Virus record (IMG/VR): IMGVR_UViG_3300013723_000002
Strand: one strand, 5' to 3'
From: a virus
DNA length: 64,000 nt
Made by a program: the position numbers and the translations under genes. The notes under the pieces were generated by a model. The model was not told the DNA's origin, made no database searches, and worked only from the letters and a program-made list of their open reading frames with translations. This document shows positions 42,114 through 55,948 of the stretch, in pieces (within the stretch, counting starts at the first letter, position 1; each line of letters starts with the position of its first letter).

Positions 42114-42190
42114 TGAGCGCTTTCCTCATTACCAAATATTGTTATATACGGTTCGGGGAACCCCGAACATTTCCGGCCTTTATTGGCTTG

Positions 42191-42259
42191 CCTATAATTT
42201 TATAGTCTATTTTTATAATTTAATAGGTTTATTTCACTATTCACCTATATTTTTATAGG
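42191..42259. promoter_or_regulatory. two operator-like palindromes (CCTATAATTTTATAGT and CCTATATTTTTATAGG)
   Basis: The same palindrome family occurs at the cI/cro, 52.2 kb and rep regulatory regions. Confidence 0.5.
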
Positions 42260-42270
42260 TTTAATAAGAT

Positions 42271-42293
42271 AAAGCTAGGATATTCCTAGCTTT
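42271..42293 (-). terminator. terminator after 42317..44533
   Basis: AAAGCTAGGA-TAT-TCCTAGCTTT hairpin followed by a U-rich tract. Confidence 0.6.
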
Positions 42294-42316
42294 ATTTTTT
42301 TCGATTTGTCTATTGT

Positions 42317-44533
42317 TTATACAAGAGTGGTTTTCATACCTAGACCGCCAGTTAAAGCATGAGCTAAGGATCTGTCTTGAACATTCTGGCTAACTTTTTG
42401 TGGCTGACTACTCACTGCTACTTGCTTTTGCTGAGGTGCACTATTTTGTTTTTTCAGCATAGGTGGCACTACGGGCACTTTAAAAGGATTGGCCAGCGGT
42501 GCGCCTGTAGCCTGCGGTGCTTTTTGGCTGGTGGCTTTTGCACTTGGGCTAACCTTTTGTGCCTGTTTCGGCTTAGCGGCTGGTGCAGTTTGGCCAGTCG
42601 TTTGTGTGGTCGCCGTTTGTCCTGGTTTCCATTCCTTGGTTGCAGGTTTAAGTACAGTGACTTTCCCAGGCTTAATGCTTCCCTCCTGGCGTTCGATGGC
42701 AGCCATAATTTTGGCCCGTTCTGCTGGCGTATATTCTGACATACGCTTATTACTACCTACGGCCGACAACACGGCGCGCTGGTAGGCTGCTGTGTTATTT
42801 TCATGCGGCGGCGCATATTTATAAATAGCATCATTTAGAGTCAGGTTTTTATAATTTTTACCAGAAAAAATAAGATTCTCTTTTGCCTTCCTTCCCGCTT
42901 CAATCGTTGGAAAAGCTGCAAAGCGTTTAGAACCCTTATCCCCGGTTGTACTATCTAAACTTAAATGGCCTTGGCTTTTTGTGAAATTACCCCGTTCAAT
43001 ATTACCTACATTTCGGTTACGCCAGTTCCAGTTACCCTGTTGTTTTATGACTGAGCCATCTGCCAGTTCTACAATGTTATAACCCTTGCCTGCTTCCAGG
43101 ACTTTAGTAATGGGGATTTCATTTTTAGGATTATAGGTAGACGGCGTGGCACTACCGCCATCACTATAGCCCCCGCCAGATCCGCCGTAGGCTGGTGAGC
43201 CATCTGCATACTGGCGGTACTGTGGCAAAAGTACCCCTGCCCCTGTCTTATAGCCTGCCAATGTAGCCAAAGAAGGGGAGGTCATCAGACCTTTCCAGCT
43301 ATCCTGGGTATATTTATTAATACCGTCCAGTGTTTTATTCCAGCTACCAATAATCTGACCCCCTAAATCCTGCTGTTGTAAACCTGCTGTCCAGCCTCCT
43401 ACCTTCTCACCAATGGTTGCGCCGATAGTCGCGCCAGCAATACTACCTACTGGGCCAAGTAAGGACCCGACTAATCCACCTGCAGTACCACCAATTAATC
43501 CACCTACACCGGAGGCCTTCTGTTCCTTATTTAGATTTCCCCATTCAGATGCCAGTAAGCCGCCACCTACCAGTAAACCGATACCAGGGATCTTTCTGGT
43601 TAATTTAGTGAGTACGCCACCTTTACCCCGTCCACGGGTATTGTCTGTAGGTACTGGAATAACTGGACCATTGCGGCCCCCTCCCCCACCACCACGGCGG
43701 CTATTTTTAGCCCCTCCCCTACCTAAATTACTTAATAAACCAGCACCGGCCAGCAGCTTACCCAATAAGCTATTTTGATCCCGGTTCAATGCCTCTAGCA
43801 TTTTTCTTAAAATACGCCGTTGTTCAGTCTGGTGCCGCTCTACCTGTGTGTAGTGCTCTGCCTGTTCAGTCGGTAACTGTTCATCCTTTTTAGGCTTAGC
43901 ACGGCGATATAGCCATAAAGCGCCCCTGCCCATACTTTTAAATGCGCGGCCAGCTGGACTAACAATAGTATTTAATTCATGAAGTGCATCCAGTGTTGGA
44001 TCTACGCCAGTTGTATCTGCATTTAAGCCTAAATTAGATCCATTTATCCCCTTACGGATACTATCTAAAAAACTCTTATCGTTTACGCCTGGTGCCCGAC
44101 TAACAAAACGCCCAGCTGCATCCCTGGTTGCATTGATTGGATCATTAGAGATAGTGGTAGATCTTGTTGGGGGATTAACTTCATGTTGGCCAGTCTGACG
44201 GGTACCGCCGCTATTACGTGTTATCTGCTTGCCCTGCCCGCCAGCACTTACCACTGGATCTAATTTGGTAGTAGACCGGGTAACACTTCGACCATCTGTA
44301 TTTACTGTCACTTTAACTGTTGGCCGGATCTGTCCAATCTTGCCAATTTTTTTTTCAATCCGGGCTACTTGGTTATAGCCGCGATTACTTTCTTCAGATC
44401 GCCGTACTAATAGGTTTTTTAAAATATTCAGGATCTCTGTTGTGTCTGTATTGACACTACTAACCCCTTGCTGAAGCTCTTTCATGCGCCGTTCCCCTAT
44501 GAGAAAGCCGGCACTGTCAAATTGAAGTTGCAT
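42317..44533 (-). CDS. tape-measure-like or virion-associated protein (738 aa) with glycine-zipper TM-like segments
   Basis: GGLLASEWG...GVGGLIGGTAGGLVGSLLGPVGSIAGATIGATIG segment. The C-terminal NRNVGNIERG...FAAFPTIEAGRKA...YAPPHENNTAAY module is seen in phage virion proteins. Has its own late motif although it sits in the early region. Confidence 0.45.
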   Translation of the reverse strand: MQLQFDSAGFLIGERRMKELQQGVSSVNTDTTEILNILKNLLVRRSEESNRGYNQVARIEKKIGKIGQIRPTVKVTVNTDGRSVTRSTTKLDPVVSAGGQGKQITRNSGGTRQTGQHEVNPPTRSTTISNDPINATRDAAGRFVSRAPGVNDKSFLDSIRKGINGSNLGLNADTTGVDPTLDALHELNTIVSPAGRAFKSMGRGALWLYRRAKPKKDEQLPTEQAEHYTQVERHQTEQRRILRKMLEALNRDQNSLLGKLLAGAGLLSNLGRGGAKNSRRGGGGGGRNGPVIPVPTDNTRGRGKGGVLTKLTRKIPGIGLLVGGGLLASEWGNLNKEQKASGVGGLIGGTAGGLVGSLLGPVGSIAGATIGATIGEKVGGWTAGLQQQDLGGQIIGSWNKTLDGINKYTQDSWKGLMTSPSLATLAGYKTGAGVLLPQYRQYADGSPAYGGSGGGYSDGGSATPSTYNPKNEIPITKVLEAGKGYNIVELADGSVIKQQGNWNWRNRNVGNIERGNFTKSQGHLSLDSTTGDKGSKRFAAFPTIEAGRKAKENLIFSGKNYKNLTLNDAIYKYAPPHENNTAAYQRAVLSAVGSNKRMSEYTPAERAKIMAAIERQEGSIKPGKVTVLKPATKEWKPGQTATTQTTGQTAPAAKPKQAQKVSPSAKATSQKAPQATGAPLANPFKVPVVPPMLKKQNSAPQQKQVAVSSQPQKVSQNVQDRSLAHALTGGLGMKTTLV

Positions 44534-44586
44534 TACTTAAAACCTGTGCTATTTATCCTGGTAAATGTTGGCACGGCGTATGAGAG

Positions 44587-54176: not shown

Positions 54177-54211
54177 ACATACGCCTTACTTATTAAAAAA
54201 AATTACCAGGC

Positions 54212-54240
54212 AAAAAAAAGGGCCTTTACGAAAGGCCCTT
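54212..54240 (-). terminator. terminator after rep
   Basis: AAGGGCCTTT-ACGA-AAGGCCCTT hairpin with an A-run. Confidence 0.65.
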
Positions 54241-54244
54241 ATTC

Positions 54245-55732
54245 TTATCGATAATTAGGGAGATAATCTAACAGATCCGGGAATAAGGACAAGTCACCTG
54301 CTAACCGCTGTAATAAATTTTGTTTTACCTGGGCCGGATCAGTCATACCAATAGGCGCATATTTACTTAAAAAGCCCGCATTTTTAACCAATTCCTCACG
54401 ATCTAATTGTGGTAAGAAGCTAAGTGTATGCCCTGGTGTTTCATTCTTCTTATGAACAATCCGATGTTGCAGCTTTTGTTCTATCATGTTTTTAGCCATA
54501 TCATGGCCAACTAAGGTTTTCCATCTGTCATATTCCGGATGACGAATAATTAGATCATTTGGGATCTCTTTCATGTTGTAAATATAAAAGCCAGGCAAAT
54601 GCAGCTTTGAAAGAATAAAATCTATATCCCAATTCCCGTTTTCATCGGGTAGCGCTGACAGTGTATTGCCATCCCCCCGGATAGCCTTTTTAACTTCGCT
54701 AATTTCTTTAAACTCTGCATCTTCAGGTTCAACCTCTGTATCGTCGTAGCGCAAAGAGGTTCCAGTAGCGCCAAGTGAGTCTAATCGTTCCTCTTCAGTA
54801 GGTGCCTGATTAATATTTTGCGGCGGTATAGGTGGCGGTAGATCCGCTTCATCTATCGGCAAGTGTCCATTACCACTTTCAAGAGATTCAGCTGCTTCCT
54901 GGCTAATGCTAACCTTCTGCTTAACAGTAAATTGATAGCCGCTCAAAATACGGCCCTTACTATTCGGATTAGTAATGTACTGGGCTTCAAAATCAATAAT
55001 TAGATCTGTTTCACGGGCAATAGTTTTGACTGTAGTTTTTAATAACCGTCCAAAATTGCTTGTCGTGGCAAATTGCTTGTCATCAAAAATTCCTAAAGCC
55101 TGGCGCAAGTTTTCCTTTTTCATCTGGAAAACACCCTTATTTTTCCAGGCTACGGCCAGCTCATACATACGAAATTCATAAGGGTTATTTAAGTTACCCA
55201 GGTTCCGGATTTCATAGGTTGAGTAATTGCCTTCCAGGTACTGCAAGAACGGGATAATTTGTGGCGAGAAATAAACCTGGATCAATGCCTCGCCTTCCAC
55301 ATAGCTGCACATCGTTGTCCAGCTTAAATCGTTCAGGCGCTTACTTACTTTAGTTGCGCCCTGGTAATCGTCAATCCAGCTGATTGTCCGTTTACGCAAA
55401 CTCTGAGCTGCTTCAGCTAAAACGCCGTAAGCATTCTGTTTAGTGGTTTTAAAGAAATTAGCATAAGTATTTGCATGAATCGTTACCGGTTCCAATGGGC
55501 TAAACTCAACCTTGGTCTGGTCACGGCGCATAATGACAATAGCCAAGGCAATGATACGCATTTCAGTGAGTGATAGCTCATAAGCTGCGGAAATTAAGCT
55601 ATTGTGCTTAAAGATTTTTTCATAACCCTGTACTTGGTATTCTTGCGGGTCAAGACTCTGCATATACGCCAATGAAGAAAGGTTAGGATCAAATGGCTTT
55701 TTTTCAGCTTCTATTTTAGAGGTTTTAGGCAT
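54245..55732 (-). CDS. rep: Rep_3-family plasmid replication initiator with a long C-terminal extension (495 aa)
   Basis: KHNSLISAAYELSLTEMRIIALAI is a Rep_3 hallmark. An adjacent iteron array is present. Confidence 0.8.
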   Translation of the reverse strand: MPKTSKIEAEKKPFDPNLSSLAYMQSLDPQEYQVQGYEKIFKHNSLISAAYELSLTEMRIIALAIVIMRRDQTKVEFSPLEPVTIHANTYANFFKTTKQNAYGVLAEAAQSLRKRTISWIDDYQGATKVSKRLNDLSWTTMCSYVEGEALIQVYFSPQIIPFLQYLEGNYSTYEIRNLGNLNNPYEFRMYELAVAWKNKGVFQMKKENLRQALGIFDDKQFATTSNFGRLLKTTVKTIARETDLIIDFEAQYITNPNSKGRILSGYQFTVKQKVSISQEAAESLESGNGHLPIDEADLPPPIPPQNINQAPTEEERLDSLGATGTSLRYDDTEVEPEDAEFKEISEVKKAIRGDGNTLSALPDENGNWDIDFILSKLHLPGFYIYNMKEIPNDLIIRHPEYDRWKTLVGHDMAKNMIEQKLQHRIVHKKNETPGHTLSFLPQLDREELVKNAGFLSKYAPIGMTDPAQVKQNLLQRLAGDLSLFPDLLDYLPNYR

Positions 55733-55805
55733 AGCTTAGTTTGAATCCGAAGGTATAGCGTCTTGATTCAAACTAATATAAACACATCTTATAGCTAAAT
55801 CAATA

Positions 55806-55948
55806 CCTATAATTTTATAGTCTAAATATAGGTGAATATAAGATAAACAGAGTAAACTAGCTGAAAAAACCCTAAAACCATGTAAGTTACTTGATCTTAT
55901 CTATTTTTTTATAAGTAAATTTCATATTTTGCCTATATATTTATAGCC
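55806..55948. promoter_or_regulatory. operator palindromes upstream of rep (CCTATAATTTTATAGT at 55806-55821 and GCCTATATATTTATAGCC at 55931-55948)
   Basis: The 55806 site is identical to the core at 42191-42206. A partial iteron, CTTGATTCAAACTA, lies at 55762-55775. Confidence 0.5.

Follow-up and report, generated by a model that had tools for sequence, protein, structure and literature searches.

A palindromic operator family shared by the lambdoid immunity region and the rep promoter of a circular Acinetobacter phage-plasmid

Introduction

Phage-plasmids have to reconcile two replication programmes, and the wiring between immunity and copy control has been worked out experimentally in few cases, such as N15 and phiKO2. 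At the N15 repA promoter the immunity repressor CB occupies two OL operators, so that repA is repressed and copy number falls, and the same has been suggested for phiKO2; the CB proteins of both lack the residues for self-cleavage (PMC4997575). Here we compare with these systems an element carried by IMG/VR virus record IMGVR_UViG_3300013723_000002, of which a stretch of 64,000 nucleotides (hereafter the window) was analyzed. The window holds ~63.3 kb of a ~71 kb replicon, and the motif scan covers this part, the remaining ~7.7 kb lying outside it. The element, a circular phage-plasmid of Acinetobacter, has a lambdoid immunity region and combines phage genes (terminase, tail fibres) with those of a plasmid (a Rep_3 initiator, ParA, a resolvase and Phd/YoeB). 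A preliminary description of the window had proposed that one palindrome is shared by the cI/cro switch, two further operon promoters and the rep promoter. This sharing is borne out, as the same operator family is kept at these four loci in ten relatives. The coupling of immunity to copy control that would follow had also been called unusual; this is not supported, given that the immunity repressor CB already acts on repA and copy number (PMC4997575).

A single immunity repressor acting on both lytic promoters and the plasmid initiator is thus already known from N15 and phiKO2. The element described here resembles these two in being a phage-plasmid with a lambdoid cB(cI)/cro switch, in having one operator family at OR and at the initiator promoter, and in encoding a repressor without self-cleavage residues. 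N15, however, is linear, has a telomerase and a RepA of the primase-helicase type, and its OL is itself the repA promoter, whereas the present element is circular and uses a Rep_3 initiator with iterons. Its rep operators form a locus apart from OL, upstream of the -35 and accompanied by a Rep inverted repeat, and a fourth operator locus (region A) is present. The element does not belong to the linear, protelomerase and RepA type of N15, as it has Rep3_N with iterons and a circular relative (NZ_CP110255.1), with no search having been aimed at a protelomerase; what it would have in common with that type is the placing of immunity-repressor-type operators at the initiator promoter, here called O_rep. 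Control of repA was shown by experiment in N15, whereas the control discussed here is predicted from sequence.

The likeness to lambda and 434 lies in the divergent cI and cro genes with operators over their promoters, in an OL downstream of cI and before a recombination operon, and in a CI made of a helix-turn-helix (HTH) and an S24-like domain, with an N-terminal match to the 434 repressor and a 14-bp dyad core in its presumed sites. The element differs from lambda and 434 in that CI has neither the catalytic Ser nor the catalytic Lys, Cro consists of two modules joined covalently in tandem, and the prophage is a plasmid. There is one full OR palindrome where lambda, 434 and N15 have three sites, and there are extra operator loci outside the immunity region. 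Dispersed operators are also a feature of P1, whose C1 repressor acts on several operons across the genome, including the lytic replicon repL. In P1 a C1 monomer binds asymmetric 17-mer operators, and C1 is not known to control the plasmid replicon repA; by contrast, the sites described here are perfect dyads and the repressor is of the HTH_3/S24 type, unrelated to C1, so that this is not a C1 regulon.

On the plasmid side, the closest systems are the Rep_3 iteron plasmids (pPS10, F, R6K and the RepM plasmids of Acinetobacter), with which the element shares a Rep3_N initiator, direct iterons and an inverted half-iteron repeat at the rep promoter. The ordinary Acinetobacter Rep_3 plasmids examined (L060–L062) have no CTATA-N4-TATAG at rep, and the additional phage-repressor-type operator predicted at this position is specific to the phage-plasmid family. 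What is new in this family is the circular Rep_3 iteron replicon, with a separate rep operator locus upstream of the -35 that is paired with a Rep inverted repeat, together with an operator pair spaced 126 bp apart and bracketing an iteron, the fourth locus, the single full OR site and the tandem Cro.

Results and Discussion

The exact palindrome CTATA-N4-TATAG occurs seven times in the window, starting at positions 42192, 42245, 50393, 52226, 52280, 55807 and 55933. The expectation from dinucleotide-shuffled sequence is 0.09 for the window as a whole; for the intergenic DNA only (8.1 kb, 32.5% GC) the seven observed compare with 0.03 expected, and none of 2000 shuffles gave more than 2. AT-richness thus does not account for the palindromes, and the objection that such a motif may be common in any AT-rich DNA is excluded. 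In an unbiased scan of all 5-Nx-5 palindromes, CTATA with N4 ranked first apart from homopolymer runs. All seven sites fall into four intergenic gaps of the open reading frame (ORF) map, namely OR between cI and cro, OL before the erf operon, region A and the region upstream of rep, so that their location outside coding sequence, as first described, is correct.

The coordinates given in the preliminary description correspond to the 14-bp cores plus 1–2 flanking bases, and both the string GCTTGCCTATA(A/G)TTTTATAGT shared at 42186 and 50387 and the identical 16-mers at 42191 and 55806 were found as reported. Two details required revision. The palindrome had been written as GCCTATA-N4-TATAGGC; it is real, but its outer G/C is specific to the window and the core of the family is CTATA-N4-TATAG. 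Likewise, the interval 50359–50408 holds one full palindrome (50392–50407) and not several, the rest of it being half-sites (50359, 50382) and a direct repeat.

To this inverted arrangement of the half-site is added a direct one. The repeat TATAG-N6-TATAG, with an 11-bp period, was found four times against 0.17 expected, at 50402–50417 (plus strand), 50470–50485 (minus strand), 52289–52304 (plus strand) and 55816–55831 (plus strand). The OR of each family member has two mirror-image copies, one over the cro -10 and the other on the cI side. It is a matter of speculation that these direct repeats could be the way in which Cro reads the same half-site.

The closest complete record is plasmid unnamed1 of A. 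oleivorans S4 (NZ_CP110255.1, L001), which is circular, 82.5 kb long and fully syntenic. Its Rep, CI and Cro are 38%, 49% and 51% identical to those of the window, and it has the same palindrome at the same four loci. Nine further syntenic contigs (L006, L007 and L063–L069) were obtained through homologs of Cro and of a 228-aa HTH protein, and the IMG/VR contig IMGVR_UViG_3300014612_000001 is 98% identical to the window. The family amounts to about ten members in public Acinetobacter assemblies, only one of them in PLSDB and none an isolated phage; no CI relative from a phage is more than 28% identical. Across the ten relatives CI is 45–49% and Rep ~38% identical to the window, and zero-mismatch sites are confined to the region upstream of rep, OL, OR and region A. 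The 55 unique sites of the window and its relatives give the consensus taaCTATAAwwTTATAGtta, with an A/T center and the 14-bp core CTATA-N4-TATAG; C1 and G14 are present in 109/110 symmetrized half-sites, and the N4 spacing is strict. In alignments of the four intergenic regions, with a mean column identity of 54–74%, conserved islands are formed by the operator, the -35 TTG, the -10 and the Rep inverted repeat.

This pattern of conservation bears on the possibility that the palindromes are nothing but symmetric -10-like promoter sequences (CTATAAT on both strands), recurring through the resemblance of AT-rich promoters to one another. The half-site CTATAA does resemble TATAAT, and several sites lie over predicted -10 hexamers. 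A promoter hexamer would, however, account neither for the near-invariant C1 and G14 nor for the strict N4, and sites whose centers are unlike a -10 (CTATAGTTTTATAG) have been kept. The promoters of parA, of the toxin-antitoxin genes and of the structural genes are without the motif, and O_rep lies outside the core promoter. We regard this explanation as extremely improbable.

The gene order cro, OR, cI, OL and erf operon is lambdoid, with cro (minus strand) and cI (plus strand) divergent. The Cro-like regulator (49942–50346, minus strand) has two tandem Cro-type HTH modules, as assigned by Pfam P22_Cro, phrog_35, an AlphaFold2 model and Foldseek. In the model (predicted local distance difference test score 91.5, predicted template modeling score 0.83) a single chain folds into the two modules, each of which superposes on the Cro of N15, P22 or Xfaso-1 with a template modeling score of 0.65–0.77 over the target (Foldseek); between the two halves there is no detectable sequence similarity.

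The CI-like repressor (50564–51226, plus strand; phrog_4) has a 434-type HTH followed by an S24-like C-terminal domain. Pfam Peptidase_S24 was matched at 2.8e-9 and HTH_3 fell below the Pfam cutoff, and a profile of the N-terminal domain matched the DNA-binding domain of the 434 repressor (E = 1.6e-5). The 434 repressor binds 14-bp dyad operators, and the 434-like HTH of CI therefore fits the 14-bp palindrome. The recognition helix reads Q-P-(S/T)-(F/L) in 10/11 sequences and Q-A-S-L in L069, with overall identity going down to 45%, and its conservation fits an invariant operator. Alignment of the S24-like domain to LexA with hhalign (CI residues ~131–175) placed Arg at the position of the catalytic Lys in 11/11 sequences. 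The position of the catalytic Ser, assigned by eye from a G-x-S-M motif with moderate confidence, is Gly in 10/11. Self-cleavage of CI thus appears unlikely, and induction probably proceeds through an antirepressor or another trigger, as would be expected of a CI that has neither catalytic residue. No antirepressor or other trigger was identified.

Operator O_R (CCTATAGTTTTATAGT, 50392–50407) lies directly 3' of the -10 of the putative cro promoter (50411–50438, minus strand), over its +1 region, and this position is kept in all relatives. The promoter was recognized by its hexamers, a -35 TTGTGT (50438–50433) and a -10 TATAAT (50416–50411) separated by a 16 nt spacer, of which TTG and CTATAAT are conserved in four members. 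On the cI side of OR, the direct repeat at 50470–50485 (minus strand) overlaps hexamers that resemble a -10 for cI and may be an OR3-like site. Beyond cI, the distal O_L operator (52225–52240) lies 19 nt upstream of a putative -35 TTGCAT (52260–52265), and the proximal one (52279–52294) lies over the -10 of the putative erf-operon promoter, with an additional half-site TATAGGC next to it at 52300–52306. The early operon that follows (52323–53452, plus strand) encodes a 66-aa protein and the Erf recombinase (52628–53452).

Given this lambdoid layout, we infer that CI and Cro are the natural binders of the palindromes; the assignment rests on position, layout and fold. That the link between CI and the sites is drawn from sequence leaves room for another binder, such as the 228-aa HTH protein (46319–47005), the 85-aa protein encoded after ParA or a host factor, which would make the system comparable to a KorA/KorB- or omega-like global regulator. 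The 228-aa protein is as conserved as CI and Cro (53% identity) and is present in every member, and a similar-looking palindrome occurs upstream of parA. The gene for the 228-aa protein, however, belongs to the very operon that O_R is predicted to switch off, and the palindrome upstream of parA is a different site, being spaced CTAT-N4-ATAG and not CTAT-N6-ATAG. The motif is missing from typical Acinetobacter Rep_3 plasmids, and this speaks against a host factor being active at rep promoters. Sites in the divergent cI/cro gap over the cro promoter, and downstream of cI before erf, make up the classical OR/OL arrangement, and we judge a binder other than CI or Cro to be very unlikely. Rep itself was rejected as the binder: its iterons and inverted repeat differ from the palindrome in sequence and diverge between members, and the palindrome does not.

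The Rep_3 (Rep3_N) initiator is encoded at 54245–55732 on the minus strand (Pfam 2.9e-27; phrog_2172). Its putative promoter (55775–55803, minus strand) has a -35 TTGATT (55803–55798), a 17 nt spacer and a -10 TATATT (55780–55775); as these hexamers are good, it is not obviously dependent on an activator. Inverted half-iterons TTTGAATC...GATTCAAA (55740–55772), conserved in the family as GTGAATC...GATTCAC, lie over the +1 region and form a putative site of Rep autorepression, of the kind usual in Rep_3 replicons. Nine iterons with an identical core are present, a single one at 55881–55895 (plus strand) and a cluster of eight (56088–56432, plus strand; core TGTAAGTTACTTGAT), which is the putative plasmid origin. 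The region thus has the initiator, the direct iterons and the inverted half-iterons at the rep promoter that characterize a Rep_3 iteron replicon. The iterons vary between members (TGTAAGTTACTTGAT in the window, TCATTTACA-type in L001) and the palindrome is constant. A very AT-rich stretch of ~140 bp (55948–56087) separates the distal rep operator from the eight-iteron cluster and may serve the origin as its DNA-unwinding region.

The proximal operator O_rep (55806–55821) lies 2 nt upstream of the -35, with its center at about -45.5. It was found in 9/9 relatives with a rep region, with one mismatch in L065, and lies 79–88 nt before the rep ATG in nine of the ten members whose sequence includes that region; the gap to the -35 is 2–3 nt in all nine aligned members. 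The distal operator (55932–55947) is 126 bp away, center to center, and abuts the AT-rich stretch before the iteron cluster. This spacing is exactly the same in the window, L001 and L064–L068, with one iteron between the two sites.

We consider it probable that the palindrome is the operator of CI, and that CI represses all four loci, rep included, and so keeps copy number low during lysogeny. CI would bind taaCTATAAwwTTATAGtta as a 434-like HTH dimer with an S24-like oligomerization domain, and the tandem-HTH Cro would probably read the same sites. In the plasmid-prophage state CI would occupy the four loci. At O_R, over the +1 of the cro promoter, it would block the long leftward early operon, at the two O_L sites that flank or overlap the erf-operon promoter it would block the erf operon, and at the two sites of region A it would block the operon downstream. 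The rep promoter would be under dual negative control, by Rep at the inverted half-iterons over +1 and by CI at the upstream edge of the -35, where CI at the proximal site could loop to the distal one (126 bp being 12 helical turns). Rep, and with it copy number, would in this way be held low by CI. Once CI is inactivated, all four promoters would open together and Rep would rise. Rep may then serve lytic replication too, which would fit the finding that no further replication protein or initiator was recognized in the early operons.

Several observations weigh against this model. OR has a single full palindrome, not the three tandem operators that make a lambdoid switch cooperative and bistable. 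No promoter was detected in region A by a scan for the sigma-70 consensus. No heteroimmune member of the family came up in searches with the 228-aa HTH protein, CI and Cro, as all members recovered share one operator and one recognition helix. The Cro of phiKO2 leaves the repA operators unbound, and the Cro described here may likewise not share all sites. At rep, the operator is upstream of the -35 and not over it, a position that activators also use, as lambda CI does at P_RM; and full repression of rep would kill a plasmid prophage, so that the effect must be partial.

The last of these points lead to the alternative that CI does bind but acts positively at rep, in the manner of P_RM or on the origin, so that replication would be licensed and not damped by the lysogenic repressor. 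It could do so by stimulation from about -45.5, or the 126-bp pair enclosing an iteron could modulate origin firing directly. The position of O_rep, wholly upstream of the -35 with its constant 2–3 nt gap, would suit an activator, and the cro and erf operators differ from it in overlapping the +1 or the -10; the spacing of 126 bp with an iteron inside is conserved, and a plasmid prophage needs Rep to be expressed while CI is present. Yet the -35, spacer and -10 of the rep promoter are already good, and the center of O_rep lies ~3.5 bp further upstream than lambda OR2 does from P_RM, which would place it on another face of the helix. The studied analog, N15/phiKO2, is one of repression, and no separate lytic replication module was recognized that would make Rep dispensable after induction. 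We consider positive action of CI at rep unlikely.

A wider version of this idea, which we likewise hold to be improbable, takes the rep operators as a licensing or architectural device and gives the two arrangements of the half-site to different proteins. With CI on both rep operators, 126 bp from each other, the single iteron beside the AT-rich origin region would be looped out, or else CI would touch RNA polymerase from about -45.5, and the lysogenic repressor would be a positive requirement for origin firing or for transcription of rep. The half-site would then be one vocabulary used in two grammars, with the tandem Cro reading TATAG-N6-TATAG direct repeats and dimeric CI reading inverted repeats.

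Under repression by CI, which we prefer, the family is a clean and conserved example in a replicon class different from that of N15, with both Rep and a phage repressor predicted to control the rep promoter. It leaves current understanding in place, and is a convenient system in which to ask if repressor control of rep is general among phage-plasmids. The promoter architecture lends itself to testing, and the operators are precisely defined and constitute a ready-made set of parts for Acinetobacter genetics.

Region A (42114–42316) follows a terminator-like hairpin (42266–42298) at the end of the gene for a 738-aa protein (42317–44533, minus strand), which divides the cro operon from the region-A operon, and precedes that leftward operon (37499–42113, minus strand). 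The operon encodes proteins of unknown function and a Holliday-junction resolvase (38300–38758). Operator O_A1 (CCTATAATTTTATAGT, 42191–42206) is the closer to the gene for a 167-aa protein that starts at 42113 (minus strand), and O_A2 (CCTATATTTTTATAGG, 42244–42259) lies 53 bp from it, center to center. Sites syntenic with O_A1 are present in L001, L006, L063, L064 and L066–L068.

The parA promoter was considered as a fifth locus and rejected. Its one-mismatch matches, at 56775 and 56863, belong to a conserved palindrome of different spacing, TCTATAAAAATAGA. Upstream of parA (56772–56810 and 56863–56876) this palindrome, in the form TCTATAAAAATAGA(A/G)TGA (CTAT-N4-ATAG, 2 bp shorter), occurs with a conserved box AATAGCCTAAGC in the window, L001 and L007. 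Both probably have another protein as their binder, such as the 85-aa partner of ParA.

A distant phage-plasmid, p1_010030 of A. defluvii (NZ_CP029389.2, L003), has a CI that is 22% identical to that of the window and different operators (GAATAAAATTTATTC, twice in OL). At 8005–8022, just before its repM start codon, it nevertheless has one perfect CCTATAAAAATATAGG. This site is best read as an inverted repeat of RepM half-iterons, since the iteron of this plasmid starts with CCCACCT and this is a usual place for inverted repeats derived from iterons; its match to the motif is a striking one, and would be by chance. The site had raised the question of whether the palindrome is a general feature of Acinetobacter Rep_3 promoters, an idea that we rejected as three ordinary RepM plasmids and pGFJ2 are without it.

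A scan of IMG/VR for DNA with two sites was also set aside, as its hits were for the most part unrelated arrays of CTATAG repeats, such as parS-like repeats before a ParA gene. Among these, IMGVR_UViG_2930942082_000001 (L010, 1540–1740) and about eight similar prophage-like contigs of ~43 kb have dense arrays of TTCTATAGAWCTATAG before the ParA gene. They are probably centromere-like repeats, and matched the scan only because they contain CTATAG. A scan of 41–58 kb against Rfam found no RNA family.

An ISAcra1 element of the IS1595 family (51331–52062, minus strand), 99–100% identical to copies on many Acinetobacter plasmids, lies between cI and OL, outside the regulon. It increases the distance between OL and cI by 732 bp and leaves every operator intact. 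The insert is missing from the 98%-identical contig IMGVR_UViG_3300014612_000001, and its insertion is therefore recent.

Two further features of the coding sequence were noted. In Erf, three tandem Gln/Asn-rich units of 13 aa (NNAQQHQNGQQSR) are encoded at 53177–53293 and appear as BLAST self-hits. In the accessory region, a 131-aa ORF (63151–63546, minus strand) starts with a Rep3_C (WH2) domain and resembles a remnant of a second Rep_3 initiator gene; it adjoins a transposase of the IS4/IS5 family (61063–61815, plus strand).

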